In this document: positions 11,425-61,882 of the stretch, one piece after another
Position numbering within the stretch: the first letter of the stretch is position 1
Layout: each line of letters starts with the position of its first letter
DNA from: a virus
DNA: 64,000 nucleotides
Virus record (IMG/VR): IMGVR_UViG_3300007177_000055
Coordinates: 61,410-125,409 of that record
Strand: one strand, 5' to 3'
Made by a program: the position numbers and the translations under genes
The notes under the pieces: generated by a model
What the model saw: the letters and a program-made list of their open reading frames with translations, nothing else
What the model was told of the DNA's origin: nothing
The model's database searches: none

Positions 11425-11498
11425 GGGCTGTTAGCTCAGCGGATTAGAGCAGTGGTCTTCTAAACCACGAGTCATCGGTTCGAATCCAATACAGCCCG
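11425..11498 (+). tRNA. tRNA-Arg(TCT)
   Basis: Acceptor GGGCTGT/ACAGCCC, D-arm GCTC/GAGC, anticodon stem GTGGT/ACCAC with loop CT-TCT-AA, T-loop TTCGAAT; no encoded CCA. Confidence 0.95.
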
Positions 11499-13910: not shown

Positions 13911-14619
13911 ATACTACTTATACGCAGAATCCCCAGACCGGGTCTTAGCAGGCCCGGTTTCCGTGTGCGGGTTGTTTTTACCAGAGCCATTAATACTGCC
14001 TGTTAAGGGCCTAAGTGAGTGGATAGACGAAGCTATAAAAACAGAAAAACTTTACTTTATACACTATTACGTATGGCCAGATGAACTAAACTTCAAAACT
14101 CTTCAGCGTCGTGTTGACTCTGTGTGCTGTCGTTTGTTCTTTAAGTCACAAATAAGAGCAACCTACCACCGGCTGGTAAAAAGTGTACCTCATTCTTACA
14201 ACTACGCTATACACTACAAACGCTGTCCTCTACACCATCGAATAGCTAGTTACCTTTGTCACCAATACCGAACAAACTTAATACTGACACACTACACTAA
14301 AGTACATCCAGAGTACTCCCTAACTAAACACTGGGGTTATAAAACTGAATTACACCTAGAAGAAATACTACGTTTAGGGCCACGAGCAGACTTCCATCAT
14401 TCTTCAGTTCGCAACTTGGTATCTCAGTACTGGTTAAAGCAACTTCTAAATGGCAACCCTAAATACTTAATGGGAGACTACCCGTATTGGTGGGGCAGCA
14501 CAGAGTTCATAAATCCAGCTCTAGTAAATCACCTACTACAACCTTCAGGATGTAAAGAACACTTAGAGTGGCTAAAAACAGCCGGTATAGATTCGCTCCC
14601 TGCTACGCCAGAAAATTAA
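13903..14619 (+). CDS. RNase HII-like protein, catalytic residues degenerate
   Basis: LAGPVSVC, IASYL, HPEYSLTKHWGYKTELHLEEILRLGP..FH match the RNase HII pattern, but GxDEAGRG is replaced by YAESPDR. Confidence 0.65.
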   Translation: MPKYYLYAESPDRVLAGPVSVCGLFLPEPLILPVKGLSEWIDEAIKTEKLYFIHYYVWPDELNFKTLQRRVDSVCCRLFFKSQIRATYHRLVKSVPHSYNYAIHYKRCPLHHRIASYLCHQYRTNLILTHYTKVHPEYSLTKHWGYKTELHLEEILRLGPRADFHHSSVRNLVSQYWLKQLLNGNPKYLMGDYPYWWGSTEFINPALVNHLLQPSGCKEHLEWLKTAGIDSLPATPEN

Positions 14620-14686
14620 AACAAAGTACACCTGGGTAAAACCAAACCGTAAGAGCCTAAACAGGATAAGCTGTAAAAAAACAAAG

Positions 14687-15076
14687 ATGACTAATTACTC
14701 AGAAAAGCTCAACCAAATTTGGCAGTCCCAGCCTGCAAATTTAAGCGTGTCAGCCAAGCTTTTAAGAATAGACTCTTTAGCTTGCATGGAAATACTAGAT
14801 AATACCCAATTCAACCACAACTATTCGGCCAACTGGTTTTTTATATTGATGGTTCATATTTTGCACCAGTATTTAAATCTGGGGTTAGTACGGTACAGCG
14901 ATCCCATAGTTAAAGAACTAACAGTTCATCACGCCTACCGTTTTCAAAGAAAAACGCTTTTAAACATTGACTCTGTAAGCATGTATAACCGTCTAGTACA
15001 CTATACTGTTCTGAGGAAACAACTCAGAGTGCTAGTCGATGACAATTTACGTAGGTCTCGACCAATCGCTCAATAA
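14687..15076 (+). CDS. hypothetical protein
   Basis: 129-aa ORF. Confidence 0.6.
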   Translation: MTNYSEKLNQIWQSQPANLSVSAKLLRIDSLACMEILDNTQFNHNYSANWFFILMVHILHQYLNLGLVRYSDPIVKELTVHHAYRFQRKTLLNIDSVSMYNRLVHYTVLRKQLRVLVDDNLRRSRPIAQ

Positions 15077-17506: not shown

Positions 17507-18116
17507 TAGTCCTACAACCATACACGCTGAAATAGATGCAATAGTAAGTCGGTCCCGAGCCATTCATGCAATGGTTAACGACTCAGAAGTAGAGTTTGAT
17601 ATAGTAGCAGAACGCCGGAATTTGTCTACAAAATCTCTATCCAAAATAGAGCGTTTAGGTGTAGGTAAAGAGATAGTACGCTTACGGCTCGAAAACCGGA
17701 TGAATATAAAACAAATAGCTGAGAAGTTTAGCCTTTCAACCGCTACAGTCAGCCAGTTTTTAAAAGTTTATGATCAAGCTAAACCTGATGAACAAGCTAA
17801 AATGCGCCGCACTAGTATTTTTGATACTGGTGAGCAATACGAGCGTCTAGGTGTTAAGCTGGACCTCTTATACGCCAAGGTTATCAGCTCAGACCAACAA
17901 GTAAGCGTACAAGTGCTCGGAGAAATGCGAAAGACCATCGAGTCAGCCGAACGTTTTATGGATAAACACTCAGAACGGGAAAAAATGGAACGTGTACTCC
18001 TAACCATCCAAGAAGTGCTACAATCTGAACTTCCTGAAAAACGAGTAGCCATCATGAAAAGGTTTGCTGCCTTAGGAATTAAAGGTGCAACTCCTGGTAC
18101 TTCCTTACCTGCTTAA
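17397..18116 (+). CDS. helix-turn-helix protein (regulator or small-terminase-like)
   Basis: MNIKQIAEKFSLSTATVSQFLK HTH followed by helical/coiled-coil region. Confidence 0.65.
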   Translation: MYDQDQERLALERAQSAMAFIEQIEFIIYSLEALKSSSPTTIHAEIDAIVSRSRAIHAMVNDSEVEFDIVAERRNLSTKSLSKIERLGVGKEIVRLRLENRMNIKQIAEKFSLSTATVSQFLKVYDQAKPDEQAKMRRTSIFDTGEQYERLGVKLDLLYAKVISSDQQVSVQVLGEMRKTIESAERFMDKHSEREKMERVLLTIQEVLQSELPEKRVAIMKRFAALGIKGATPGTSLPA

Positions 18117-18187: not shown

Positions 18188-19756
18188 ATGCCCAGCAATT
18201 TAATCGCAATGACTGGCCGCGTTTCATCGTGGCTAACAGACCCTAGATATACACTACCTGTAAGCTGCACGGTCTTTAGAGTTCTAGATAAAATGGCCGG
18301 TAGAGATGGAATTAGAGATTCTTGGGACTTTGCTTCCTATGCTATTGGTAATGCCGCTGGAGCGGCAATTCACTTAAGTGAAATCAGAGAAAAAGGAAAC
18401 ACCAACGCTGCTGGCTTAGTAGCCTCTGGCCCCATGTCTTTTGGAGAGATTTTCTCCACTATTAACAAAGTTATACGTCGTGGCGGTATCTATAAGAACG
18501 GTGCCATTGTACTGCACTTAGATTTAACACATCCTGACCACTTACACTTTATTAGGGGATACGACGAGTCTGACGAAAGTAATAAATGGTTACAGCAGCG
18601 CAGAAAAGATTACGAAAACTGTCCAAAAGAAGACAAAGACTTAAAAACTTACCTTAAAGAACAACTAATAGAAGGAGAAAATCAGGTCCTTTCAGAATCT
18701 CGTCACACCTATGCTTGGGTTAAACGATGTCTAAACGTTGCTGAAAATTGGTTAGAGACTACACCTACTGAGATTATTAACGAAATACTTAAAGCTATTG
18801 CTCGGGGAGATCTTTGGTTAAACAAGATTCGCTACGACGCTTCAGGTGAAAGGATTTACGCCAACGTTTGCCTAGAAGTTTACTTGCGTCACCGAGGGAC
18901 ATGTTTGTTAATGCACGGAAACTTAGGGCAAGCAGAGGTCGGAGCACCTAACGCTTCGGGTGACTTTGATCACAACTTAGTATCCATGTTTAAAGAAGGT
19001 GCCGAGTTGCTATGTGACTTGCACTCACGCACAAAAGTAGGAGAGTCTGGCTACTATTTAGATCCAAAGGTAGACCGTCAAGTCGGTTTTGGTTTAATTG
19101 GTTTAGCTAACTTCTTGAGTTACCATAAAGTTAGCTACAGGGACTTCGGTTTGGCTCTCAAAAGAGTCAATGACAGCGAAGTAGTATCCACAGACAACCC
19201 AGCTAACCGATTAGCTCTAGCCCTTAAACAAGGCATTGAAGCTGCAGCTGTAATCTTCCGAGCCAATCATATGGACCGGGGCTTTGCAATTGCACCTACA
19301 GCTACGTGCTCTTATCGTTATCAAGACCTTCGCGGGTTTACCACTACTCCAGAAATTGCTCCTCCAATTAACCGTAAGGTTGACCGTGACTCAAGCACTT
19401 TTGGTGTACAAACTTACGACTATGGTGACGTAGAAACAGCAGCTGAAGTAGGGTGGGATACTTACTTTGCAACGACCAACGAAATCTTACGCCTTTATCA
19501 ATCTAGTGGATTGTTTCATGGCTACTCTTTTAACAGTTGGTCTGACGTAGTTAGCTATGATCTGGACTTCCTAAAAGCTTGGAACGACTCGCCACAAACG
19601 AGTTTGTACTATGCTTTACAAGTAAGCCCAGACTCTCTACGCAAAGATGACGCGCTAGTTTCTCTAGACGAGTCTTACAGAGAAATCTTCAGCTTTGATG
19701 AAGCTCCTGTTTGTGGCCTAGACCCTGATAGCATTTGTAGTTCCTGCGGAGAATGA
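18188..19756 (+). CDS. nrdA: ribonucleotide reductase large (alpha) subunit, short cyanophage-type class I
   Basis: PVSCTVF, ANVCLE (NxCxE), GTCLL, APTATCS, SLYY tyrosine pair, C-terminal CSSC; no ATP cone. Confidence 0.92.
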   Translation: MPSNLIAMTGRVSSWLTDPRYTLPVSCTVFRVLDKMAGRDGIRDSWDFASYAIGNAAGAAIHLSEIREKGNTNAAGLVASGPMSFGEIFSTINKVIRRGGIYKNGAIVLHLDLTHPDHLHFIRGYDESDESNKWLQQRRKDYENCPKEDKDLKTYLKEQLIEGENQVLSESRHTYAWVKRCLNVAENWLETTPTEIINEILKAIARGDLWLNKIRYDASGERIYANVCLEVYLRHRGTCLLMHGNLGQAEVGAPNASGDFDHNLVSMFKEGAELLCDLHSRTKVGESGYYLDPKVDRQVGFGLIGLANFLSYHKVSYRDFGLALKRVNDSEVVSTDNPANRLALALKQGIEAAAVIFRANHMDRGFAIAPTATCSYRYQDLRGFTTTPEIAPPINRKVDRDSSTFGVQTYDYGDVETAAEVGWDTYFATTNEILRLYQSSGLFHGYSFNSWSDVVSYDLDFLKAWNDSPQTSLYYALQVSPDSLRKDDALVSLDESYREIFSFDEAPVCGLDPDSICSSCGE

Positions 19757-20487
19757 TGTCTTTCCAATCACCCTACTTTCAAGTTCTATCTAGAAAAAAG
19801 TCTTGGTCACCAGTGGCTATTCCTCGAGAACCGTTAAAAGCCGGAGCAGAAGAAGCTGTTTACAGAGCTTTAGCCTTAAGGTGTCTAGAACTTCCTGTAA
19901 AGGAATTTCTAGCACAAGGCTTAAAGGGAGAATTGCCTAAAACTCCAGGAGTGATAGAAATCCTTGAGTCTAATCAAGCAGACGAAGACCGCCACGACTT
20001 AGCCTTTGAGTATGCTGTTCAAGCACACGGTACAAATGCGCAAGCTGAAAGGGAGGCTCAACACATCCTTAAAACGATGTTAGAAGATCCTTCACATCCA
20101 ATTCTTAAAGCCGCCATTTTAGAGCGATCAGTGTTCTTTGTATTGTTGCCCTTTTACCGTTTTAACGGAGACAAAGGCTTACGTACCATTGCTGCTGACA
20201 TCTCCAGAGATGAACAAACACATGTAACTTCACACCACATGATCTGTAAAGAGCTAGGCGTTAGGCCTTCCGCTTCTTTAAACCGTCTGCGTCGAGCTAT
20301 TGTAGCTTGGGTTATGGAACCACTAGAAGCCAAAAGTGAAAACCAATGGCAATCTAAAGACTTTTGGTTAAAACAGTCAGACGACCTTTATAGCAAAGGT
20401 GCAGCTAGTGGATTAGCATCTACTAGAGCATCTACCATGCACGCTTTCTTTGAATCACCAAACACTTCTTTGCCTAGTTACGGTTAA
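19753..20487 (+). CDS. nrdB: ribonucleotide reductase small (beta) subunit, ferritin-like
   Basis: LE, DEDRH, LERSVFF, DEQTH di-metal ligands; ATGA-coupled to alpha. Confidence 0.88.
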   Translation: MMSFQSPYFQVLSRKKSWSPVAIPREPLKAGAEEAVYRALALRCLELPVKEFLAQGLKGELPKTPGVIEILESNQADEDRHDLAFEYAVQAHGTNAQAEREAQHILKTMLEDPSHPILKAAILERSVFFVLLPFYRFNGDKGLRTIAADISRDEQTHVTSHHMICKELGVRPSASLNRLRRAIVAWVMEPLEAKSENQWQSKDFWLKQSDDLYSKGAASGLASTRASTMHAFFESPNTSLPSYG

Positions 20488-20494
20488 CCTTTGC

Positions 20495-20516
20495 GCCCCG
20501 ACCACCGGGGCTTTTT
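20495..20516 (+). terminator. Rho-independent terminator after RNR beta
   Basis: GCCCCG-ACCAC-CGGGGC followed by TTTTT. Confidence 0.8.
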
Positions 20517-20519
20517 AAT

Positions 20520-21032
20520 ATGCAAGTTAAAGTACTCAACGACGCCAACCTAAATACACAAGTCTTCAGTGAAAACTCAGTTTTGATTTCTATAGTTGGT
20601 AAAGAAGAAAAGATTCCAGAAGCTGTCGAGCGAGCTGTCTGTGTCTTGTTTTTAGACTTTGACGATGTCATTCCAAAAAACGAAGAACAACTAAAAGACT
20701 TTGAGTCTTACTGCAACCTAGAAGAAATAACTGCTGTCTTAGAAGTTTTAGAGGACCCTTCAGTAGACGTGGTATATGTACACTCAACTAACAGCAACAG
20801 TAGGTCTTTAGCTGTTGCAGCAGGCCTACTAAGCTCAAAGGAAAAAGACTGCAAGGAAGTTTTATACCAAATCGTAAGCCAAGATCCAAGCACTCAACCC
20901 AACTATTGGGTGTTAGCTTTGTTTGATTGGGTGTTGGACTTGTCTGGAGCACTGACTACAGCCGCCGACGATTATTTAGCTACAGGCGAAGTAGTAAGCA
21001 AATCTGGACGGATTATTACTCACATTAAGTAG
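20520..21032 (+). CDS. protein-tyrosine-phosphatase-like protein, catalytic Cys replaced by Ser
   Basis: LISI...LFLDFDDV...VYVHSTNSNSRSLAVA...QPN..V...D matches the small predicted PTP fold (HCxxGxSRS). Confidence 0.7.
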   Translation: MQVKVLNDANLNTQVFSENSVLISIVGKEEKIPEAVERAVCVLFLDFDDVIPKNEEQLKDFESYCNLEEITAVLEVLEDPSVDVVYVHSTNSNSRSLAVAAGLLSSKEKDCKEVLYQIVSQDPSTQPNYWVLALFDWVLDLSGALTTAADDYLATGEVVSKSGRIITHIK

Positions 21033-21041
21033 CCTAAAACC

Positions 21042-21206
21042 ATGCGTGCCCCTAGCTTTTTTGAGCTTTTGTTAAAAGGTTTATCTACAAGGATAAACCT
21101 TAAGAAACCAAGAACTATAACTAAGAGCTTAAGTGTAACTGAAAGATGGGCCAAATACTGCAAAGAAAACCCTGGCGCAGAAGAATGTAGAATTTATGAC
21201 ACTTAA
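21042..21206 (+). CDS. CP12-like peptide (C-terminal Cys-pair module only), 54 aa, not in ORF track
   Basis: MRAPSFFELLLKGLSTRINLKKPRTITKSLSVTERWAKYCKENPGAEECRIYDT*; C-terminus matches the CP12 YCxxNPxAxECRxYD motif. Confidence 0.8.
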   Translation: MRAPSFFELLLKGLSTRINLKKPRTITKSLSVTERWAKYCKENPGAEECRIYDT

Positions 21207-21259
21207 ACTTCTTAAAAAAGACTAGTAGCGTGTAAACTGTCACTAGTCAATTACTAGCA

Positions 21260-21457
21260 ATGACACCTAAATTTCCTGGCGTTTACGAGCTACTAATCAG
21301 AGAACCTAAAGGGGCTGCTCCTAGAACTTTAGGTATAGCTCACGTACTTAACTCCAACCCTGGAGCAGCTATAACCTACAAAGATCGAAGCTACACGATA
21401 GTAAACCGTTCCGGACTACCCCCTACAGGACAACTTTTAATCCGTCGCACTGACTAA
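21260..21457 (+). CDS. hypothetical protein
   Basis: 65-aa ORF. Confidence 0.55.
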   Translation: MTPKFPGVYELLIREPKGAAPRTLGIAHVLNSNPGAAITYKDRSYTIVNRSGLPPTGQLLIRRTD

Positions 21458-21459
21458 CT

Positions 21460-21642
21460 ATGATTTACGCTTTGACTGCCTACGCTGTGCTGGGACTAAG
21501 TACTGCTTTAGCTGCAAAATACCCTGAAACCGATAACAAAACTCTAAAGGAAAAACTAACATATGTTTACGCAGGTATTACCGTAGGTTTGTTTTGGTGG
21601 CTTTTCTGGCTTATTGCTATAATCAGGAAAATCCTTTATTGA
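21460..21642 (+). CDS. small membrane protein
   Basis: Two hydrophobic segments; GLFWWLFWL. Confidence 0.6.
   Translation: MIYALTAYAVLGLSTALAAKYPETDNKTLKEKLTYVYAGITVGLFWWLFWLIAIIRKILY
21615..21623 (+). promoter_or_regulatory. candidate extended -10 sigma70-type promoter for the tRNA pair
   Basis: TGCTATAAT (TGn + TATAAT) about 50 nt upstream of tRNA-Val; a leader hairpin AGCCCT-GTCT-AGGGCT lies at 21649-21664. Confidence 0.5.
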
Positions 21643-21670
21643 ATTCACAGCCCTGTCTAGGGCTTAATAC

Positions 21671-21743
21671 GCTCGACGATCCAGCTAGTGAAGGAGCCTC
21701 CCTTACAAGGAGGAAGCGGCAGGGGCAGAACCTGTGTCGAGCA
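21671..21743 (+). tRNA. atypical tRNA-Val(TAC)
   Basis: Perfect acceptor GCTCGAC/GTCGAGC + A73; anticodon stem CCTCC/GGAGG, loop CT-TAC-AA; T-stem GCAGG/CCTGT but loop GGCAGAA; G at position 8. Confidence 0.8.
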
Positions 21744-21745
21744 TT

Positions 21746-21818
21746 GCCAGCTTAGCTCAGGGGTGGAGCGACTGCCTTGTAAAGCAGTAAGTCGTCAGTT
21801 CAAGTGTGACAGTTGGCT
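21746..21818 (+). tRNA. tRNA-Thr(TGT)-like with 8-nt anticodon loop (possibly pseudo-tRNA)
   Basis: Acceptor GCCAGCT/AGTTGGC, TAGCTCAG D-arm, anticodon stem ACTGC/GCAGT with loop CTTGTAAA, T-loop TTCAAGT with a G53-G61 mismatch. Confidence 0.7.
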
Positions 21819-24800
21819 TACCCTAATTGACCGCTATCTGTACGAGGACCTGTAGGAGTCCAATGTCCAGAACCTCGCTGACCTAAAGGCATAGGTTCGT
21901 GTGCCGCAGCTTCAGACTGTCGATGTCTAGCTGCTGGGTCTTGTCCTATCAACTCAACTACCGAAGCATAATTTTGAACCATAGAGACATAAGTAGTTTC
22001 ATTTTCAACTCCTGCAGCTTTAGTAGCTACTAAGTCAAAACGTTCTTTGACCGGTTTAGCCATAGGCTCAGCGTGCTGATTAGCTTTAACGCCTAAGTCA
22101 GCTTTTACTTGATAAACTGCCGGTGCAACAGTCGCTTTCATAGCAGCTGCACCAGCGCTTACTAACGTGTAGAAAGCTACTTGTTGAGCAGGATCAATAG
22201 CTGATGCTAATTCAATTTGAGCGTTACGTATAGAAGCTGAACTATAAGACTGTGTTACTGGAACTTCTGCTCGCTTTTGGAAAACATGCCTTGGTTTAGT
22301 AGGCACTACTACCTGAGGTTTACGTACACTTGAGTTAGGTTTAACCTGCAAAGATTTTAAAGAAGACTGATAAAGACGGTTGGCGTCTTCTTGTACTTTT
22401 TTTTGGTACTCCACTCGAGATAAACCTTGTATTGTTTTAGCAGCCCGCATTTCTAAGATCGTACCACCACGTCTAGGTATACCTAGGCCTTCACGTTTAG
22501 AACCGTAATCGCCATAATAAGACTGTAGTTCTCGATCTAAAGCACTTTCATTAACACCCGTCATAGTACCTGTATGCCCACCCAAAGGGTGCTCCCGAGT
22601 AGGCATTTCCGAGACGTGGAGTTCTACGTATTGACCTCCAGCTCTTTCAGTACGCTCAGCTACAGAGTATTGACTGCGAGGATCTGACCCTAAAAGGTTG
22701 TCCGCGCCCGGACGGTAAAAACGAATTTTATCCGATAGCCCAGCAGCTCTAACTTTAGTTTCCAGGGCAGCCAACACAGCTTGGTTGTAACGCAGTTCAC
22801 CTAAGGTGCCTTCAGCTTTCTCACTACCCCGCTGAGAATCAGCATGTCCAGCAGCAAAGACTATAAAAGGTACCTTAGAAGAACCCTGATAAATTGCATT
22901 TTGATTTACTGCCGAATGTGCTTTTCTAATATCTCCGCTAACTGAAGAGTTTGAAGACCTAAAGTTACGACTGTCAGCCTCACCCCACTTACCTGTGGTA
23001 AGAGAAGTAAAGTACCTCTGCCATATAGGTCGGGGCGCTTCTCCGTGAAGGTGTATACCAGTACTAGCTCCACCGGCATCAACTCGATCTTGTATACCTA
23101 AAGCCTGACCATAGGTAACTGTTTGTCCTAGTTTCACACGAAGGGAACTCATGTGAAGTTGCTTGGTAATTGAACCGTCAGCGCCGCGAATAGTAACTCT
23201 ACCGTATTTATTATCTATACCTATAACAGTTCCGCTTTGCATAGCAGGAACAACTACATTACTGCTGCCCTTTCTTAGCAAAACAATATCAAAAACAACT
23301 TGTTTAGTACCTTTGATAATACTTTCTACCCCTGTTTCATAAATAGGGCTCTTAACGTACCCTGTATAATTACCGGTGCCAGCCCAGTGATACTTTAACT
23401 GAGAATATTTAGTAACAGCTCTACCTCCTGAAAAAACAGTGTAAGGAGCCTGAGTGACAGAATCAGTAAGCTCAGCCAAACTGCTTTGGCCTAAACCAAA
23501 AGGAACTTTATACTCTCCCTTCAAAGCTCGCTGGTAAACTCCCATTAACTCTTGTTGACTTTTCACAGGCTGACCATAGTAACTCTTACCGCTAAGTGTG
23601 GGAAAAGACGCCCATACAGGGGCTAACTTTGCCATAACTTCAGGCGTAAGTTTTGCGGTATAAGGATCAATACCTAAAGCTCTGATTTGGGCTAGAGCCG
23701 CTCTATCTTGATCAGCTGGAGTAAAAGACTTAGTTTTAGAGAACCTTGCGTAGGTCCCAGGCATAAATTGATAAGCACCAGCAGCAGCAGAAGCGTACCC
23801 TCCAGTAACATTAACGCTGTCTGGGTGCTTGCTCATATCTGTAAAGTACTTATAGCCATAAATAGTTTGGTAACCTTTAGGACCCAAAGTCCCTTCGGCA
23901 TACCTAATAGCAGTTAATATAGCTCGGGCATTATCGTTGAGGCCAGTATAACCAAACTCTACAGGCCCTCCTAAAGCTTGACTTAACGCGTCAACCGCAC
24001 CACCAGCTGCAGCGGCTGCAGCATCCTTAACACGTTGTAAGCCAGCACTTACTGAGTAAACTAAGTCTTTAGCTCGACCACCTAACCAGTCCATAGCTTG
24101 CTGCCACCAAGGCTTTTCCTCAGTCGCTACAGAATCTTTAAAAGTTTGTTGCAAAACCCAACGTTGCTGTTTACGAGTAGCCTTATAAGCTGTTATTTGT
24201 GAAGCAAACCGTCGGCGCTTAGTAGCTACGTAGCTATAAATAACCTCTTGCTGGGTAGGTTGTAAAACAGAATACAACTTACCGCTTTGAGTAAAAGCTT
24301 CCGGATTACGTTCTCTGTCAGGTTCACTACTACCAACAGGTCTAAAGGAACCTTCTAAACCCACTAAAAGTAAAGGTAAACCTACTAAACGGGCAGCAGC
24401 CTTACCTAGATTTTGAAGTGCCGGAGCGGTAAAACTGTAGATTAACCGCGCAGCTTGATTTATTGCAGGCAAGTACTTTGTTAGAGCAAGTGCAGAAGCA
24501 CCCGCCGAAACACCTGAAACATTAGAAACCTTTTCTATAGTATCGTCTGTTAAGTTTTGAGAGCCCGGCATTTGATATGTCCTATAGCTTCGCATGCTCA
24601 CTGAAGTGAGCTGTCTAATTATTAAAGCTGGAGCTACTACTCTTGCTGTAGCAGCAAAACCTGTACCTAGCCCTAAAGCAGAAAACACAGCTTGAATTCC
24701 AGTCAAAGCTGCGCCTGAAATTAGAGCTGCACCCACTGCATTTACACCAGCTTGAGACCAACTCTTACCAGAGTTAACAACTTCGTCTAAAACATTAATG

Positions 24801-27800
24801 CTAGTCAAGCCTAAACCTAGACGGCCACCCAATAAAGTACGAGCTGCACCTAAAGGATGACCTAAAAGATTAATTCCTTTTTGGAAAAGATTAAGTTGAG
24901 TCCCGCCATTTGTTACAAAACTCTGGCGCGGTTCGTACAAAGACTTAACGTAATCACCAAAACGGCCTTTAATACCTACTTTAACTCCCAGTGGTAATAC
25001 CCGATCAACCGGCCGATCAGCTCTTTTTTCTGCTAAAGCCTCTCTAATTTGGGAACGAGGCCCAGATCTTACTAAAAAGCCGAAAGCCCTTTCCCTAATA
25101 CGATCAGATAACTTAGTGCCTAAGTAATTGTCAGGCAGCACACCAGTTGCTTTATAAACCGCGTAGTCCCTAGGTGCTAGTTGTAGCGTACGACTAGAAG
25201 AGTCATACACAAAACTTCTTGGGCCCAAAGAGTCAGAAGTTAAAAGATTCCCAAGACGCACTGAATCTAGTTCGTCAAAAGAGCCAGTTACTAGGTTACT
25301 GATGTTACCTAAACCACCAATGTCAAAACCATAATGCTGAGCATTCAGTAAAGTACCCGCACGAGCTAAACGACTGTTAAACCCACCAGACAGATAATTA
25401 CCAAAACTAACAGCTGCTGCTTCCCATGGACGTGACTTAGGATCATTCTTTAAGAAAAAGGCTTCAGTACCCGCCATAGATCCTAAACCCTGACCTGCAT
25501 TCCAAGCAGCCATTTCTATATTTGCAGCTACTACCGCACCTAAAGGTCCACCGCTTAATAAAGGCACCGAAGCAAACAAAGCTAAAGCCGCTAAAGTAGT
25601 ACCTCCGATAACACCACCTACACGCTGATACTGGTTAAGCCCAGCGTACCCAGCCCTGCTGTATTGGTTAATATCTTGCATACGATCAGCTATCTGAGAA
25701 GTCCTCCATTCTCTAACTGAATCCAGCCCTAAAGCTCCGGCTCCTAAAGCAGACCACAAAGCAGTGCTTACGCCATTATTAGCAATAAGCCCTAACAAAC
25801 CAGTTTGTAAAGACTTAAACTCTAAGTCCGCTGCATCCTGACTAATTTGCCAAGGCGTCCGGTCAGTGTTTAAAGTCTTAGTAAGTGCGGTAACACTTTG
25901 GTAGGTTCCTGCTGCAGACAAAAACACACCCGCCCCAGACTGAACCAAACCTTTAGCTGCCAAAGGTAATTTATTGACCAGATTACGTGTGACAACACCA
26001 AGACCTACCACACCAGCAGCTAAAAATCCAACTCGTTGGGCATTACGGTAAGGTGCATTTTGAGGATCGGCTTGGTCCTGCTCGTAGAACTCACTAGTAA
26101 CGCTCTTTAGCCAAGGGTTATCTTGAACTAAAGACTGAGCCATAAAGAAAGATCCCATGACTTGTCTAGTACGTCCACCTGCAGCAGAAAAAGCTAATCC
26201 AGCTGCATTTTCGTAGAATTCTGAATAGGCTGTTTGATACTGAACTTTTCTAGAAGAAGCAGTTAACTGGCTAACGCTAAAACCAGCAGTAGCTAACCCT
26301 GAATATTCTAAGGAAAAACGACTAAGCTTCCCACTTAAACCGACCAGTCGACCAGGCCAAGGACTATTAGCCCAAGCACTTCTAGCTTTACTGGTCAGCT
26401 GTCTAGCCATAGGTAAAAGCCTACCCAGCTGACTTAAGAAAGACCTAATTGGCTGTAGAGCACGCATTGTAAAGCGAATGGGTCTTTCTATAGGACTCCC
26501 TAAGATCTGCCTTTTAGTCGTTTCTAGTATCTGAGTGTTAATATCTTGACCCAAAACCAGGGCCAGACCACCTACTAAAGTTGCACCTAACAAAACAGTA
26601 TTTAGTAGACCCAAAGAATTTGGGCTGTTAATAGGCACTAACGGGGCCAAACCTAAAAACAAACCTAACCCTAAAGCCCTACCGCTCTTAAGAGACCTCC
26701 ACTTAGGGCCTATACCTAGAATCTTCCGGCCACCCACAAAAGTTTTAAGAGACTGAACCTTTGAATAATCAGGCTTTATTTCACCTGCAGCTTCTTCAAT
26801 GGCCTTTATAGCATCAACTTTGTACCTTTCGTAAGCTATACGGATTCTACCTTGCCAGAAATAAGCCGCAGGCCCAGCCAGAGTACCTGCTACAGTAGAA
26901 GCGTGATAAGTGAAGGAGTCTTCATCACCGTAATTAAAGCCTAAGTTTTTACTAGTAGCCTCACCTAAGTAATTAAAAATACTGGTCATAGCCCAAGCCC
27001 CTAAACCAGCAGCTATAGCTACCCGTCCTAGCCGGCCAGTTAACTTTTTACTCTTAACTATCGTACTGGATTCTGTATTCCAACGCATCTTAGTATCTGC
27101 CAACAACAAGACGCTGCCACCTGCCCAACTTATACCAGTAAGACTTTGCTTCAGTTGGTTACGCTGACGTTCGTTTAAGTTAGCTTTAGTGGCGTAGGCA
27201 TCTCCTATAGCTTCACTAAGCTGCCAACTGGCAGCAGCTCCAAGCACTACACTAGGAGCAACTACACCACCTAACTTAGCTGCAGTTCTACCAAACTTAA
27301 CAGCTGGCTCAAAGAAAGTACCTACTTTTGCAGGCAAACTAGCTAATCGACCGATACCGCTGAAAGATCTTAAACCTAAGCTAGCAAAGGCAGCCCCCAC
27401 TGCACGTTTTGAGCCACGCACTGTACTCTGTACACCCCGCCCAGTAACTCTATTGATACCGCTAAACAAACTTCTTAAGTTGTAAGCCCCCTGAGACTGA
27501 GTTAAAGACCTAAGAATTTCTCGGGAGTCTTCATATAAAGTAGCTGCAGCAGTACGCATTACATACCCGTACCCCAAGCCCCGCCTTTGAGAATTAAGTG
27601 CCGCTAAAGAACCAGCAGTTATTAAAGGTGAGTAGGAGTAAACAGGCTCTTGGGGACGAGTGTAATAAAAGTTAGCTGCTGTAGAATCAACCCCAAACTG
27701 TCGTTGACGCATCGCTGACAACAACAGATTACTAACTTGTGACTGGGACCTAAAACCTCCCTGGTTTAGAATACGTTCTGCATAACCAGCAGTACCAAAG

Positions 27801-30800
27801 TAACGATTAGTAAATTCAGGTTCGGGGTCAAAAACTGGACGGCCCATCAAAGCAGGACTAAATAGTGCTTCGTCTAGCTCAATATCAGGATTAACAGCTC
27901 GATACAACCGACGTCGGTGCATTGAGTCTCTGCGGTTACCTGTATCTGCACCATATTCTTCCATGCGACGACCTTGCGAATTAAATTCAACCGGTAACAA
28001 GCCAACTTGCTCTTCCATAAAAGACCCAACGGTTTCTGGCAACAAAAACCGAGCTATAAAACCGAAACCTGGAATGTCCAAAGCTTTTGTTCTAAAGGAG
28101 TAAAGCGCCGGGTCTGCTATTTGAGCTATTACATTAGTAGCACTAAACAACGTATTCAACCCTGGCGCTCGACCTACAGAACTTAAAAATCCAGCCGCAG
28201 TAGCGGTAACTGGTTTAAGTAAGCTTTCGTTAAGGCGATCAAAAGTAGTTAAGAAAAAGTTCTGAACGCGATTGTTGCTAGCTTTGTTTATAGCTAAGTA
28301 TCCACCTATAGCTGCTAAAGCAGCTAAAGTAGTAAAGCCAGCTTCAGCTGCCCAGGCTTTACCTATAACACTAAACACACCTAATCCTACAGCAAGTTCC
28401 GTACTCTTAGCAGTTACAAAATAACCAGCTTGAGTACGTACCGCCTCATTAGGCGAACTCAAGTAAGAAGCACCAGCTAACAACTCGTAACCTTGAACTA
28501 CATTAAAGTAACTCATTAGAGTACCAGTGGAACCTGCTAGACCTTCTCCGATTAAACCGGAGTAGCCTCTTTCCCTAAAGGTTTTGTTAATAGAGCTAGC
28601 TAAAGGCTCATTGAAAGTTTGTGTTGGCATTATCGCACGTTGACGCTTTTTAGCTCCCCAACCTGCACTTTGGGCAGTAGTAGTTTCAAAGGTATCTCCC
28701 AAAAAGTCTTCGTGTAACAATTGAGCTACATTAGCAAAATGGTTTAGGGCATTTAAACGACCATTTATAGGATCAGCATCCCAAGCCTGAGCTACTTTAG
28801 CTTCCAACCCATATTGATCTGCTATTTTCCCCAACCTGTTACCTACGTCAAAGCTGTTGTTAATACTAGTAAAAAGACGATAAGCTCCTTTACCACTAGG
28901 GTTATAGATTTCTCTCATTCGAGTAAGCAGCGTGTCGCGAACTTGACTTTCCCTAAGTAAAGCTGAATTACCCGCTGCTGTTTGGAATTCTTCTAACAAC
29001 CCAAATCGGGCAGCATTATAAGAATTTACTAAGTCTCTAGCTTGTGTTTCAGATATACCGCTAGGAACTGCTCTTACTAGTAAGTCTTTAGTACCCCCAG
29101 AACTGTTGGCCTCAAAAATAACTTGACCTTTACCAGAAACATAATCAACACGAACCCTAAAGCTCGAATTCATCCGGGCCTTAATGTCATCAAAAGAGTG
29201 AATATAAGGTTTAACCCTAGATGAAGTAGCAAAAGTAAACGCAGCTAAACCAATGCCAGCAAAAGAAGCCACACTAGCAGCTGTCAATGTAGCTAACAAG
29301 ACTCCACCAAACAAAGCAGAAGGCAAAGAGCTTTTATCGAAAGCCTGGCCAGTAGAAGCCAAAGTGCTAGTAAAGTAAGAAAGAAAAGGAGTGCGACCTA
29401 AGATTTGTTCTTTGTAATACCCAGAATAGTTGCCTAAATCATCACCTGAAGCTTTACCCGTAGCAAAGTCTAAAAAGTCAAATAGCCCCTTTTTCAGCTC
29501 GTTAACGCTAAATTCACCACCTGCTCTAGCAGAATAGTTAGCTAGATTAGGAAAATAGGCTTTGCCATATCGTTTGGCTAGCCAACTAGCTACGTGATGT
29601 TCATACAACAAACCCATCAAGATTTCTTGAGGCCTTTGGTTAGATATACGAATTAACTCTTGTTGACGTTGACGGATAGCTAAGGATAAACCCTGACTAC
29701 TACCAAGTTGTGCGTATTCTTCACTGGTTACCGCTTTCTGAATAGCAGCTGGTTGTTGTCTAGGCACAGCACTAAAAACGGAATAATAAGCACTAGCTAC
29801 ACCACGGTTGGCGCCTATCAACGCAGCTAGCATATAGGCTTGATCTCTAGTAGTCGTAAGACCTTTAACCATGGTCATTTCAGACCCAGAAATGTCAGTG
29901 TAAGCCGTAGTAGCTTGCACATAACTCCTAAAGCCGTTCTTAGAATCTGAGATACCCAAAGGCCCTATTAAAGAGGCAAACATATTAGGGTTATCTTGAT
30001 AAGCACCAGTTAGCTTTTGAACATTAGCTACACCTAAAGCAGAACCTAACAGTTGTTGTATTAAACCACCTAAACCTGGGTTTCCTTGACTAGGAACGGC
30101 ACCGTATTTAGCTGCTCTACCTACAGCCAATTGAGCTTGGGTGTAATTGTTTTGACCAGTAAGGAAAAAAGGCAGTAACAGGTTTTGTAGCCCGTTCATT
30201 TCTCCCTTCAAACCAACAGTCAGTAAGTTGCCAGCCGCTAAAGCCGCCCCAATTAAAGCTAGACCTGCTCCGTACTTAAAACCTTTGCGACTAGCTAGAC
30301 TGAAACGTAAGCCCGCAGTTTCTATTAGAGCCGGACGCAAAGACTGTAGCTGTAATAGTGCTCTTGGATCAGAGTCTTTAGCAGCTTGTTGTAAAGCTTC
30401 CTTTAAAGTACTCCCACGTACACCTTCTGCTGCCAGCAAACTTTTATCGCTGGCTGCAAAATTACGTTCATATAAAGCCCATATTTGGCTTTGGTACCGA
30501 GCTGTAGCACCTACAGCTGGCTTGCCTTCAGCAAACTTAGAAAATATAGGATCTTCAGCTCCAGCAAATACACCAGCTCTGCTTAAAGCAGCGCCGTAAA
30601 AAGCTCCGTAAAAGGAACCTATGTAGAGCTGCCGTGCAAAGTTTTCTCTAGCTACCTTTTCAGCTGACCATTCTGGGTCATTAGCTTTAGTAGACTCTAA
30701 TTCATATATCAAACCCAACGGGTTAAAAACAGACGATTTAGGTGAAACTAAGGAACTAGCTGCTAAATAAGGTAATAAATAAGGGGTTAGTCTACGTAAA

Positions 30801-33800
30801 CGTCTGCCCAACACCAGCGAAGTTTTGTCCGGACTTAAATCAAAGACGCTTTGAAAAGCTCCTTTAACTATGTTGGGAGCTACTAAAGTAGGAACCTGAG
30901 ACCAAGTAACTAATTTTTTAGCTAAACCTCCACTAACGCCAACTAAATCTCTAGCAGTAGACCAATTCTTTAAATCTTGGGCTACACCCTTGTCTCTAGC
31001 TTTGGCCATCAACACGGAAATATCAGCTGCGTTATCCCCTCTAAAAGTACGGTACCCAGACCCTAAGTAACTAAAGGCACCTACGGTACCCATAGCTGCG
31101 TACATCTGCGATTCAGGGAAGAATGTCACTAAAGATGCTAAGTCTGAAGCTTGTGTCCAAAAAGCAGCTCCTTGGTCATCCTTAACAAACTGTCCACTAC
31201 TAGCTACAGCGCTTCTTTTTCGCAGCAAATCTTGTATAGGACTTCTGGGTGCTCCGTAAGTTAAGCCAAAAGGACTCATCGGAGTAGAACCAGCACCTAA
31301 AATCGGCATAAATTGGAAACCTGCCCCTACAGCTGTAACTCCAGTACGAGGGTCACTTCGACCAACTACAGTGAACTGGAAGATAGGTGTAGGTATTTGC
31401 AGAGCAAAGTTATAAGTTATATCCTGCCTAGTAACATCAGGCGTCTCTAAGCGTTTAGCTAAGTCCCTGAGCATCTGAACCCTAGCCAGGTATATTGGAT
31501 TGTTAGAGCGGTTAGAGTCTTGTAAGGAGCTTACTATATTTCCTTTAGCCAAAGCACTTTCTGGGTCTATTTCATAAGACTTATCTTTGTCTTTACGGTA
31601 AATCGTATTAGCCAGAGTAGCTAAAAAAGACACCGAAGCCTGCGCAGTTAATATTCCAGCTAATGCACCAACCAGTGCACCAGTCTTAGAAAAACGCACA
31701 CCCATATATCTAAGACTAGACTTACCACCTTTTTCAATACCGATAACTTCGGTATAGTAGTCTCTACGCCAGGCACTTTCACCCGTAAAACGGTACCAAC
31801 CCGAAGACTTACCGTTGTTTAGTATTTCATCTACTGATCTATCGCCGCCCAAGTCTAAACGCTTAGTTCTTGTTTCAGGGTCAGGAGGCTGAACTAAATT
31901 CCATTGTCCTTTAGGACTTACATTACGCTCAGTAATTACGACTTGACCTGAACCAGATTCCCACTTATAGCTTCCTGAGTATACGTTTAGTAAGTTCTTA
32001 GAATTACCACCAGCAGTACGTACAACTTGACCTCGCTGTATAGGTACGTTCCCAGTTTGAGCAAAAGGTCTTCTATTTACGATGTCTGTCAGGTTGTTAA
32101 CGTCGTAATTAACATACTGAACTTGGCGTTGGTGCAAAACGTGACCCCCAAACCAAGCACCTGTAGCTAGAGCCATTGTGGCCAAAGGCTTAGGTACTAC
32201 ACCAGTAAAATAAGTTTCGTTCCACCTAGTCCAGTCTTCTTGGTTTTGAACTTTGTAACTGTTTGAAATCTCAGCTCCAAGTTGCGTAAATAAATCAGCT
32301 CCTTGAGGCTGCATGTAATAGTTATCAAAGATACGGTCTAAGACTAACAACGACCCTAACTTAAAGAAACCAGAGCGAAACTTACCAAAAGGACTAACGT
32401 CTTTAAAACCACCAGCAGTAAGAAAACTAGCTGAATTACGAGCGTTACTAAAGTCTACTTTTTGTTCCCGTAAGTTTAGTAAGGTAGGTCCAAAGTTCCG
32501 CCCCCTTAACTGAAGTTCTTCAAAAATAAGACGATTCTGCTTGAGGAAAATGTCCTGACTGGTTTGGAACACTTCCTTAACGGAACCTTGGGTGATAAAA
32601 CTGGCTGCCTGACGACCAATACGACTTACAGCTTTAGTTAAAGAAGTAAAGCCAGGGCTAACTAAAGAACTAGCGGAACGATCTGATCCAGGTTCTATGC
32701 TTTGTCCCCCTACAGCTTTAGTACGAGTTGAATAGTTGCCGATTAGATCCCTTATCTCTGGCAACCACAACCAAGGGCTAGCAAAGATAAATCGTCCGGT
32801 CTGATCAGCCGCGCCAGCCAAAGCTCTAATGCGCTCAGTACCTATATTTTTCAGAGTTAATACACTCTTGTATTCTCCGTTTTCTCGCAATTGTATTTGA
32901 GGTAGTTCTCTGGATAGCCTCTGACCCTCTTCCCAAGCTTCTTGTTTAGCTCTTTTTTCAACGGGATCACGTGGGTCAGCCGTCATTACATACCCTAAGA
33001 ACGGTCCTAAAAAGTTATCCCAAACGCTAGAATCTATGCGACGAAATAAACCTATTAACCCTAGAGGTCCGGAAGTTAAGCCTTTAGGTTTTATCTCAAA
33101 ACTGGAAGTGTCATAAACAAAACCTAGTTGTTTGCGTTCCAGTTCTATTAGTTCTACAGCTGTAGTGCTAGCAGTTATACCTTTAATGCGTGGTAAACGA
33201 GCTTCTTCAGTTAAAGTACGACTTCCACTAGGACCATCAATATAGCGAGGCAAGTTCCCTACATCAGGTAGAGTAAGTTGGCGAGATTTTATTAAATCAT
33301 CTAGTTGAGTTGAGGACTGACCTGGTGCCAAAGTAGCTTTAGCTCTTTCTAAAGACTCGATAGTGTTCTGCTCTAGTAAGTACAACATGTTCTTACTGAG
33401 ACTTGTACCGTCTGCTGCCATTGCTCTTTGGCTGGCTACGGAATAAACTGTGGAGTACCAACCATCAATCATCTTACTTCTCACACCATACTGAGCCATA
33501 GCATCAGCTGCTTGTTGCTCTATATGAGCTCTAAGCAGAGTAACACCGTGGCTAAAAGCAAAATAACTACCTATAGCTTGTGCTGTCTGCACTGCTACTT
33601 CCTGACCAAAAGCTACGATGCGCTCTACAGGTCCGGCATCTTGCTTTTGTCTATAAGCTGAACGATAAAGCTTTCTTAGACTACCGTAATCTCTGCCTGC
33701 TTTAGCGTCTTCTAAGTCTTGTAGCCAGTAAAAGCCAGTAGCAGTATCCAACGCCCGACCAACTGCCGCTCCCAAAAATCCTATTAAACCCAAACCGGGT

Positions 33801-60559: not shown

Positions 60560-61882
60560 TCAGAACGTGCCGTAGTTAACGTTGGCTTCCAGTACTAGTT
60601 GGCTGGTGAGTTCTTCAGGCTCACAAACAGTCAAGTTAGCAATCCAGTGAGGATATACAGCAAATGGTAGGAACGCGTCACCCATTTGCATAACCCGACC
60701 AGGAGGTGAAGGCGGAGCAGCGTCAGGGCTGGTGCGCATATAAATACCAGGAGTACCATCAGGAGACTCACCAACACAGTGTTGAGTCATACCCAAAGTA
60801 GCTCCGCCACCTTGCATATCCCGAGGAGCAACCAGCGCCACTTTATTAGCAGGCCAGTAAGTTTTAACAGTATTAGTTACAGGATCGCGATACAAACCGC
60901 TGATTTCACGAATACGTAGACCAGCAATAGAGGTCAAACGACCGCCAGGACCAAAAGTAGCCCAACCAGTCGGCAAAGCAGACTGAGAAGCTCCAATAGC
61001 AGCATTACCTGCCACAGATCCAGGTTGATTAAGCACCATTAAACCAGGCAAACCCTGATAAGCCTTGAGATACTCGTTAGTTGACTGAATAACAGTCAGC
61101 AACTGGGGCGACATAACGATTTCCGTAAACCGGTTTTTGTTAGTCAACTCCAAATACTGAGCAATCAGCTGAATGCAGCGAATAATGTTAGCACGGGCAT
61201 TAGTCCAAGGTACACCAAACTTATCGTCTGAAGAAGTGAAAAACGCAGCTTCAGTACGACCAGCGTCATTGACCAAAGCGCTGTTAGCAGTATAATTAGT
61301 ACCTGCAATAGGCACCACCGCGTTAGCAGCTACACTGGCATTCCAACCTTTATAACTAAAGAAGTTCTGAGGTGGAATGTTGGTACTAACGTTGATAGCT
61401 ACGCCAGTGCGGGGATCAGTATAGTTAATACCGCCCAGCAGAGTCTTAGAACGGAACAGTTCTTTGACACGGGTGTGACGGTTGACTAACTTTTGAACCC
61501 GGCGGGAAACAATCTCAGCGGGAGACCACTGTTGGTTAACCGTACCTACTTCACGTAGCTGGTTGATCAACGCTTGTTCAATAAAGTCTTCTTCCCGCAC
61601 AGAAGCAGGAGTGACTCTCATCGAACGAATCCGGTCAGGCTCAACAAACCCACCGCCCGGAACACCAAACCGAACGATAGGCATGATGCCCAGACCTTCA
61701 ACGATCTGTTCAATTACAATAGTGCGTTCGTTAATGGTAACGTCAGGAAAAAGATCTTCCAGCCCACCAATATCAATACTCTCAAAAGAACGCGCCAGCA
61801 TGGTCAGCTGAAGCGAACCGAGAGAAGGAATATCCCCTACATACGCATAAGGCGTAATTTCAGGCGAAAACTCTGTAGCCAT
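60560..61882 (-). CDS. major capsid protein (HK97 fold, lambda-E-like)
   Basis: Follows protease/scaffold; LFP...I.IE....G.GIMPIV..G.P, P..VRE...I; GAGG RBS; 440 aa. Confidence 0.88.
   Translation of the reverse strand: MATEFSPEITPYAYVGDIPSLGSLQLTMLARSFESIDIGGLEDLFPDVTINERTIVIEQIVEGLGIMPIVRFGVPGGGFVEPDRIRSMRVTPASVREEDFIEQALINQLREVGTVNQQWSPAEIVSRRVQKLVNRHTRVKELFRSKTLLGGINYTDPRTGVAINVSTNIPPQNFFSYKGWNASVAANAVVPIAGTNYTANSALVNDAGRTEAAFFTSSDDKFGVPWTNARANIIRCIQLIAQYLELTNKNRFTEIVMSPQLLTVIQSTNEYLKAYQGLPGLMVLNQPGSVAGNAAIGASQSALPTGWATFGPGGRLTSIAGLRIREISGLYRDPVTNTVKTYWPANKVALVAPRDMQGGGATLGMTQHCVGESPDGTPGIYMRTSPDAAPPSPPGRVMQMGDAFLPFAVYPHWIANLTVCEPEELTSQLVLEANVNYGTF

Follow-up and report, generated by a model that had tools for sequence, protein, structure and literature searches.

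The question raised by positions 21671 to 21743 of the window (the whole stretch of viral DNA analysed here, 64,000 nt in length and corresponding to positions 61,410 to 125,409 of IMG/VR record IMGVR_UViG_3300007177_000055) is whether a sequence that has the outline of a valine tRNA can also function as one. The doubt arises from the absence of U8, A14, G18, U54, U55 and A58, bases that are almost always present in bacterial tRNAs and the lack of which weakens the reading of the sequence as a working tRNA. A first-pass annotation, made from the sequence alone, had nevertheless proposed a functional, non-canonical tRNA-Val. The anatomy of the sequence, its genomic setting, its relatives and the alternative explanations are considered here.

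Anatomy of the tRNA-Val(UAC) gene

The features of the gene, which is referred to below as class A together with its close homologues, are as follows; counts out of 13 refer to the alignment of distinct class-A sequences described later.

21671-21743, + strand: non-canonical tRNA-Val(UAC) gene, class A; 73 nt, CCA not encoded
21671-21677, + strand: acceptor stem, 5' strand, paired with 21736-21742; 7/7 Watson-Crick pairs
21678-21679, + strand: G8 A9, replacing U8 R9; 13/13 aligned members, including those not selected on these bases
21680-21695, + strand: D arm, UCC/GGA plus an A13.A22 mismatch, with loop GCUAGUGA
21697-21713, + strand: anticodon arm CCUCC-CUUACAA-GGAGG; stem 5/5, anticodon UAC at 21704-21706
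21714-21718, + strand: variable loop AAGCG, G48 opposite C15; G48 invariant (13/13)
21719-21735, + strand: T arm GCAGG/CCUGU; 5/5 pairs, one of them G.U
21724-21730, + strand: T loop GGCAGAA, read as G54 G55 C56 A57 G58 A59 A60
21743, + strand: discriminator A73, invariant in the aligned members

The spacing of the cloverleaf is exactly that of a tRNA (2 nt, 8-nt D loop, 1 nt, 7-nt anticodon loop, 5-nt variable loop and 7-nt T loop), and its stem and loop sizes are those of the class I elongator architecture. The first-pass annotation described all four stems as paired, which is correct in full for the acceptor, anticodon and T stems, whereas the D stem comprises three standard pairs and the A13.A22 mismatch. 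The deviations that it listed (G8, G14, C15, G48, G54, G55 and G58, with C56 kept) can all be read in the sequence, as can the valine elements that it considered intact, the anticodon TAC and A73. Valine identity in E. coli resides in A35, C36 and A73, and this set is present at 21671-21743. Conversely, U8, A14, G15/C48, G18, U54, U55 and A58 have all been replaced, such that only the equivalents of G19 and C56 are left from the canonical tertiary set of U8, A14, G18, G19, U54, U55, C56 and A58.

The D loop is numbered here as G14 C15 U16 A18 G19 U20 G20a A21, retaining the original scheme without nucleotide 17 and with one 20a. The designation of A18 and G19 is an interpretation; it aligns best with the D loops of host tRNA-Val genes, and is supported by its fit to the measured association between G55 and an AG D loop that is described below. 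The minimum-energy structure calculated with RNAfold is the cloverleaf (-28.7 kcal/mol, z -2.0, 9/200 shuffles as good). Additionally, the 17-nt anticodon arm is that of a canonical tRNA-Val(UAC): of the 63 sites in IMG/VR that carry it exactly, 57 lie inside tRNA-Val(tac) genes called by ARAGORN. The other six sites were att-like 3' halves, a degenerate tRNA and chance hairpins, unlike 21671-21743; readings of the latter as an att site or a plain terminator were considered and rejected.

Detection by gene finders and chance expectation

The comparison with ARAGORN that had been suggested in the first-pass annotation was carried out, and the gene was not called, even at -ps80, a setting that yields 95 'genes' in the genome. 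Within the window, the calls were confined to a tRNA-Arg (11425-11498) and the tRNA at 21746-21818. Rfam model RF00005, which has a gathering cut-off of 29 bits, likewise gave no match to 21671-21743 at E<=10 in a 701-nt search. Conversely, when both strands of the genome (125,409 bp) were scanned under strict cloverleaf criteria, which required tRNA spacing, every one of the 17 pairs of the acceptor, anticodon and T stems and a D stem of at least 3 pairs, there were two matches in total, namely a tRNA-Ile and 21671-21743. In 300 dinucleotide-preserving shuffles the mean number of strict cloverleaves was 0.027, with any match being present in 8/300, indicating that the cloverleaf at 21671-21743 is not a product of chance.

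Rejection by both gene finders is what would be expected of a decaying tRNA-Val pseudogene or a chance cloverleaf, and a related explanation is that the structure belongs to the opposite strand, for example to the 3' end of a convergent giant gene. This group of explanations is regarded as very improbable. The expectation of 0.027 per genome counts against the chance version, and evidence bearing on the others is given with the genomic setting and the alignment.

Genomic setting and host

The neighbourhood of the gene includes the following features.

18188-19756 and 19753-20487, + strand: ribonucleotide reductase genes; small ORFs and then the tRNA-Val(UAC) gene end the block
21746-21818, + strand: tRNA-Thr(UGU)-like gene, 2 nt downstream of tRNA-Val(UAC); found by ARAGORN and by Rfam (47.7 bits)

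Since the tRNA-Thr neighbour is 2 nt away on the same strand, 21671-21743 sits in a small tRNA cluster, and proximity to a genuine tRNA is a further argument against a chance cloverleaf. The tRNA-Val(UAC) gene closes the + strand block and faces the 3' end of a convergent ORF of 4459 aa, a position between convergent genes that lends some support to an opposite-strand origin of the structure. A scan of 20400-22400 for promoters and terminators revealed none adjoining the tRNA-Val(UAC) gene, and a single terminator-like site at 20495-20511, after the RNR-beta-like gene. The tRNA-Thr(UGU)-like gene has an 8-nt anticodon loop and a G53.G61 apposition in this assembly, and the damaged appearance of this neighbour is compatible with decay.

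A cyanobacterial host is supported by the phage matches of the RNR-beta-like protein: the 56 records comprise 51 that are named Synechococcus, Prochlorococcus, Microcystis or 'Cyanophage', one Tiamatvirus PSSP7 and four that are uncultured. The closest relative in IMG/VR (L061) encodes an RNR-beta-like protein that is 86% identical, and has tRNA-Thr(UGU) alone at the syntenic site, on the other strand. No copy of the tRNA-Val(UAC) gene was found at that site or elsewhere when window positions 21660-21830 were compared by blastn with the 190-kb record. The absence of the gene from its closest relative could be cited in favour of a pseudogene, and indicates that the gene is dispensable or mobile. 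Besides L061, the one viral relative, the RNR-beta-like search turned up two metagenome contigs, of which L063 stops short of the site and L062 has no tRNA detected by ARAGORN. Neither a search for relatives with the C-terminus of the giant convergent protein nor a search with an exact 25-nt T-arm/acceptor pattern returned anything. A strain with approximately 98% identity, represented by DNA contigs from runs X1-X3 that cover 21300-21781, has no differences in the 73 nt, although with only about 1-2 expected this is not significant. Among sequencing runs, none of RNA was found to contain the stretch.

Class-A family in cyanobacterial viruses

The first-pass annotation had made its case depend on homologues that share the paired changes, and such homologues were found. 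The class-A family comprises 14 distinct sequences, namely 21671-21743 itself, 12 in 29 IMG/VR contigs and one common to isolated Synechococcus phages. Searches in which different parts of the tRNA were held fixed contributed to this set. A pattern of anticodon loop plus T loop identified L187 and L188 in IMG/VR, both of which agree with 21671-21743 in G8 A9, in the complete D loop, in C47 G48 and in A73, none of which was part of the pattern; the anticodon arm of both is the cyanobacterial arm CCUGC-CUUACAA-GCAGG. When the D loop and T loop were fixed and the anticodon left free, 22 loci matched, in which four distinct cloverleaves were present in five loci (L187, L188, L220, which is identical to L224, and L221), all of them having A73 and UAC, the only anticodon found. 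Fixing the D loop and anticodon with the T loop free gave 31 loci, of which 29 were full cloverleaves (12 distinct) and two were chance matches. Exact-pattern discovery of this kind under-samples the family and fixes some columns, and the invariance reported below is in part a consequence of search design, the T loop, D loop or anticodon having been fixed in separate searches.

BLAST against GenBank phages revealed full-length, unannotated matches with 74% identity in Synechococcus phages S-N03, MA10, MA01, ME01 and MC09, the host of which is Synechococcus sp. MW02. The 73-nt homologue is identical in S-N03, MA10 and ME01, the sequences of which were read; MA01 and MC09 are represented by BLAST rows with the same figures. 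In S-N03 the homologue is located approximately 200 nt downstream of a tRNA-Asn on the same strand. Rfam detected the tRNA-Asn only, leaving the homologue unmatched, as was also the case for the class-A homologue in L187. According to the published description of the S-N03 genome, tRNAscan-SE identified one tRNA only (Asn) (PMC7472177), yet the phage carries the class-A gene also.

All class-A members with an examined neighbourhood are located in or beside tRNA clusters and are co-oriented with the neighbouring tRNAs. In other genomes the gene lies within one-directional tRNA arrays without a convergent gene, which argues against an opposite-strand origin. In L220/L224, L221 and L319 the gene continues from A73 straight into CCA, which is not the case at 21671-21743. 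No canonical tRNA-Val(UAC) was found in the examined class-A loci, and the valine tRNA called by ARAGORN in L220, L221, L319 and L311 is the GAC isoacceptor.

A search of 151 cyanobacterial genomes with the family model revealed only canonical tRNA-Val(UAC). The scores were 31-46 bits, as against the 73-90 bits that R1, the first model, gave to the five GGCAGAA members from which it was built. When 185,579 prokaryotic species, each represented by one genome, were searched with the exact T-loop pattern, 56 matches were obtained, among them a single cloverleaf (L238), and the family is therefore essentially viral. Class A is a real, conserved gene family of cyanobacterial viruses that is unannotated in isolated phages.

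Covariation and conservation

The 13 distinct class-A sequences of the covariation alignment pair in 90.6% of cells, and 15 stem pairs change on both sides. None of 500 column shuffles reached any of the five measures employed, and slid controls showed 27-37% pairing. Compensatory pairs are distributed over the acceptor stem (6/7), the anticodon stem (5/5) and the T stem (3/5), while D-stem pair 10-25 covaries between C-G, G-C and U-A; pair 13-22, on the other hand, is never standard in the 13 sequences, and G52-C62 and G53-C61 of the T stem do not change at all. The result was similar for a subset of five sequences, and RNAalifold predicted the cloverleaf unaided from the class-A alignment. 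G.U cells in the stems outnumber C.A cells by 15 to 4, which favours the tRNA-sense strand as the functional one and is a further argument against the opposite-strand explanation. Decay, for its part, would break stems, yet the family displays 15 compensatory pairs and fixed loops over 13 distinct sequences, which come from numerous contigs as well as from isolated phages. The pseudogene, chance and opposite-strand explanations are thus largely refuted.

Positions invariant in all 13 sequences are G1, G8, A9, C11, C12, A13, the D loop, G23, G24, U33 to A37 (hence U33, the UAC anticodon and A37), G48, G52, G53, G55, C56, A60, C61, C62 and A73. Some of this conservation was free of any constraint from the search: the D loop is identical at 8/8 positions in L187, L188 and S-N03, G55 and C56 are present in all nine further distinct members from the T-loop-free search, and UAC is present throughout the anticodon-free set. 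Positions 54/58 do vary over the 14 distinct sequences, being G/G in eight, A/U in five and A/A in one, but never U/A; these are also the states of the members from the search that left the T loop free.

The first-pass annotation took the simultaneous change of both partners in each tertiary contact as a sign of selection. As an argument from one sequence this is weak, because if all of the invariant bases differ then both partners differ by definition; it gains strength from homologues that share the changes and from stems that covary. All 14 members have G8/G14 and C15/G48 and, since these positions never vary, covariation does not demonstrate their pairing. The contacts G8.G14, C15.G48 and G54.G58 are accordingly put forward as candidates on the grounds of conservation, as opposed to covariation or structure.

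Elbow swap and T-loop-only relatives

The relationship between position 55 and the D loop was examined in the tRNAs that ARAGORN called in the loci collected here, 544 of which were distinct and could be parsed cleanly. In all ten tRNAs with G55 the D loop contains AG and lacks GG, whereas 514 of 531 with U55 have GG. The sequence at 21671-21743, with T loop GGCAGAA and D loop GCUAGUGA, fits the design of G55-C56 with AG, and class A has in common with the other G55/AG phage tRNAs the same G55 and C56 and the AG D loop. However, eight of those ten keep U54/A58, and the sequences that were inspected keep U8 and A14, which class A does not; in class A, positions 54/58, 8/14, 15/48 and 13.22 are changed as well. 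Judged by these bases, class A is a more extreme sub-type of the A18/G55 tRNAs.

Relatives in the T loop only are four other distinct Val(UAC) cloverleaves (L093, L070, L185, which is identical to L076, and L238) that have GGCAGAA and an AG D loop but keep U8 and A14. The viral ones (L093, L070 and L185/L076) lie in large arrays and were not called by ARAGORN. Rfam scored L093 at 52.3 bits and missed L070 and L076, the L185/L076 sequence being missed again in G003. CCA is encoded directly after A73 in L185 and L238. BLAST of L093 and L070 against GenBank phages returned ordinary tRNAs only, the T loop of the tRNA-Val of phage Milchi being AUCGAAA.

Two genomes are informative with regard to the role of these relatives. 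G003 (108 kb, with terminal repeats, 100% complete) has 26 ARAGORN tRNAs and G002 (88% complete) has 38, in each case for 19 amino acids with valine missing, and each carries a Val(UAC) cloverleaf with T loop GGCAGAA as its only valine tRNA; the argument from 19 amino acids pertains to T-loop relatives that keep U8 and A14, as opposed to class-A members. Nine further weak Rfam hits in G003 and G002 are odd tRNA-like sequences, of which a relaxed ARAGORN search calls four, none of them Val.

A probable working tRNA-Val and its alternatives

The most economical reading of the gene is that of a working tRNA-Val(UAC). It is probable that 21671-21743 specifies a phage elongator tRNA built upon an alternative tertiary core, for which charging and decoding are predicted; the functional, non-canonical tRNA envisaged in the first-pass annotation is in this respect supported by homologues with covarying stems. 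The tRNA would probably be transcribed together with tRNA-Thr from the + strand, whereupon host tRNA-processing enzymes would cut it out of the shared transcript and CCA would be added. The host valyl-tRNA synthetase (ValRS) would then charge it via A35, C36 and A73, and on the ribosome it would read GUA, with other GUN codons as probable further targets. The phage uses GUA more than any other valine codon (874 of 2114, or 41%, in the 69 ORFs that are 150 aa or longer). In the folded molecule, the elbow would be formed by A18.G55 with G19-C56, and the T loop would contain G54/G58 (A/U or A/A in relatives), while in the core G8 and G14 would replace U8.A14, C15/G48 would replace G15/C48, and 13.22 would be permanently unpaired. 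The data bear directly on sequence anatomy, conservation, covariation, genomic context and the restriction to the UAC valine isoacceptor; expression, processing, valylation and decoding, as well as any benefit of the altered core, are what we infer.

The substrate bases of ThiI, TrmA and TruB are well established. With G at positions 8, 54 and 55 those bases are absent, as can be read directly from the sequence, and s4U8, m5U54 or pseudouridine 55 are not possible. ValRS contacts the tRNA elbow via its C-terminal coiled coil, and it could be speculated that this contact explains why the elbow is altered in valine tRNAs specifically.

An alternative is that the gene gives rise to an RNA of tRNA shape that is made and processed without taking part in decoding. 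Such an RNA could act as a decoy or sponge, its target being a host defence enzyme directed at or sensing tRNA-Val, ValRS itself, or an enzyme of tRNA modification, and it would be kept by selection for its shape and valine identity elements. What is seen in the alignment is indeed selection on shape and anticodon loop, use in translation being deduced, and the universal elbow bases have been replaced; two papers describe phages countering tRNA-targeting defences with tRNAs of their own (PMC10264068, PMC11555353). However, it is not obvious why a decoy would require the exact anticodon loop of 7 nt with its U33 and A37, the invariant UAC and A73, or the CCA encoded in several members. Moreover, the gene fills exactly the isoacceptor slot that is missing from the tRNA sets, and if the target enzyme recognised the canonical elbow, a decoy would be expected to retain that elbow. 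A decoy is, for these reasons, considered unlikely.

A second possibility accepts the working tRNA-Val and refines it, in that the altered core would serve mainly in escape from host immunity or modification, the selected property being resistance to nucleases that act on the T loop or elbow, or independence of TrmA, TruB and ThiI. Precedent for the former is provided by CbCash, a CRISPR-associated Schlafen nuclease that, according to the passages concerned, cuts T-loop UUC and is defeated by single changes at U54 or U55 (PMC13462974). The class-A family never has U54 or U55, and the G55/AG design recurs in other phage tRNAs. Among called tRNAs, however, the altered T loop is limited to the valine tRNA in this genome and in three of the four other virus records searched, the exception being G002, which also has G55/AG tRNAs of other identities. 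The valine-only change in this genome argues against protection from a broad T-loop nuclease, since one resistant tRNA cannot rescue translation from an enzyme that cuts most tRNAs. To our knowledge no valine-specific nuclease has been described, and no defence system was linked to the hosts of these phages in this analysis. Evasion of a tRNA-targeting defence by the class-A tRNA is a plausible conjecture, although escape as the main purpose of the altered core is doubtful. In its broader form, the idea would be that cyanophages and other phages carry an alternative solution to tRNA folding, a valine tRNA that is accepted by the ordinary host synthetase and ribosomes although U8, A14, G18, T54, Psi55 and A58 are all missing, and that the altered core is a device for immune evasion or orthogonality as opposed to drift; such a tRNA would be blind to host enzymes that modify the core and to nucleases or sensors of the canonical T loop and elbow. 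This may be entertained tentatively.

Taken as a working tRNA-Val, the gene appears to represent something new, namely a valine-specific tRNA, conserved and carried by phages, that has an alternative core and is unannotated in isolated cyanophages. The bases replaced are textbook near-universals, and a conserved and apparently working tRNA of a bacterial system would show that there is another way to the L shape. Class A could feasibly serve as a natural test of the demands that RNase P, RNase Z, the CCA-adding enzyme, ValRS, EF-Tu and the ribosome make on the elbow and core, and is directly testable, since its carriers include Synechococcus phages that have been isolated and the host of which can be cultured. 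Since the class is missed by ARAGORN and Rfam, phage tRNA complements, and analyses of codon usage with them, are systematically incomplete. Should escape from tRNA-directed defences prove true, class A would constitute a new kind of counter-defence and a scaffold for orthogonal tRNAs.

Comparison with known systems

A canonical tRNA-Val(UAC) of the RF00005 type has the same 73-nt class I spacing as class A, in many genes an identical anticodon arm, A73, G53-C61 and the equivalents of G19-C56, but it differs in having U8, A14, G15/C48, G18, U54, U55 and A58. A partial counterpart is the GenBank-annotated tRNA-Val(tac) of Sinorhizobium phage Phosso (L286, 1492-1567), which is 84.6% identical to class-A member L220 over positions 10-48. 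Like L220, it has G8, G14, a GCCA/CGGC D stem with A13.C22, the anticodon loop UUUACAC and a variable loop starting CAUUG; unlike class A, it has a canonical elbow, with GGG in the D loop and a T loop of the UUCGA type, and it is annotated. The occurrence of the core change with a canonical elbow suggests that core and elbow are separable modules.

Published descriptions of the GGCAGAA T loop, of the A18/G55 swap or of a class-A valine family were not found in the literature listings, abstracts and passages covered. The L-array tRNAs are accessory genes in dense arrays, some of which have been called pseudogenes (PMC8421152; survey PMC4758250), although 23 of the 26 tRNAs of the Anabaena array were detected and charged (PMC8421152, PMC4758250). 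The matching passages of these papers describe no altered T loop or core in L-array tRNAs, in contrast to what is seen in class A.

[quoted passage not shown] Mitochondrial type II tRNAs are of organellar origin, with a lost D/T contact and variable loops, whereas the gene described here has standard loops and resides in a viral genome of cyanophage type. As far as those passages go, the mitochondrial tRNAs and tRNA-Pyl have altered stem lengths and are served by dedicated or co-evolved machineries. Class A, by comparison, combines standard stems and a retained G19-C56 with its altered core, and presumably must use the ordinary bacterial translation system.

Genes flanking the tRNA-Val(UAC) gene

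The sequences on either side of the class-A tRNA-Val, the non-canonical gene with the altered core, contain the following features within the window.

21649-21664, + strand: 6-bp hairpin (AGCCCU-GUCU-AGGGCU) between the last small ORF and the 5' end of the tRNA-Val gene
21746-21818, + strand: tRNA-Thr(UGU)-like gene, neighbour of the tRNA-Val
21818-35197, - strand: giant ORF of 4459 aa, convergent with the tRNA-Thr(UGU)-like gene

The small ORF ends at a stop at 21642, and the single strain difference in the hairpin (21657 C>T) falls within its loop. The stop codon of the giant ORF overlaps the last base of the tRNA-Thr-like gene; its product has PLD-like (residues 205-335) and peptidase M23 (residues 3981-4053) domains, and a homologue occupies the same place in the closest IMG/VR relative of the window phage.

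In this assembly the tRNA-Thr-like gene has a G53.G61 mismatch and an anticodon loop of 8 nt, CUUGUAAA. Contigs from three sequencing runs (X1-X3), derived from a strain ∼98% identical to the window phage, have a loose end before 21782 that points to the absence of one A, and hence to a normal 7-nt loop, and to G>A changes that restore A21. Since these contigs imply a normal loop, the 8-nt form may be peculiar to this strain, or an error in assembling a homopolymer.

Other carriers of the class-A tRNA-Val

The same 73 nt are present in Synechococcus phages S-N03, MA10 and ME01, which represent two genera, and in MA10 an HNH endonuclease gene (L287 476-873) starts 3 nt after the tRNA. Together, these sequences hint at recent transfer or mobility. 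Separately, a phage contig with a class-A member encodes a cyanobacterial-type (permuted) tmRNA (L187 2053-2318, + strand; Rfam cyano_tmRNA 75.1 bits, tmRNA_permuted 64 bits).

Related departures in other tRNAs

Several Glu, His, Arg and Met tRNAs of a 208-kb phage (L206, G002:C1:118000-137999) have G55 T loops (UGCAA.., AGCAAAG) and a D loop with AG rather than GG, examples being those at 1029-1101, 1889-1961, 17652-17723 and 18865-18936. Four further G55/AG tRNAs are present in L031, among them a tRNA-His whose T loop reads GGCAGAU.

Phage G003 (locus L204) has four weak Rfam tRNA matches uncalled by ARAGORN (14658-14764, 14481-14553, 14559-14652 and 2169-2247). One is a tRNA-like gene of 107 nt: its T arm is canonical, CCA is encoded, and its extended arm of 8 bp contains an inner hairpin. 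In another, the 'anticodon' loop is 9 nt long.

The T loop AUCGAAA (A54, A60) is another departure from U54, occurring in an annotated tRNA-Val of Pseudomonas phage Milchi (L182 1496-1568) and in a megaphage tRNA (L183, LR756501).
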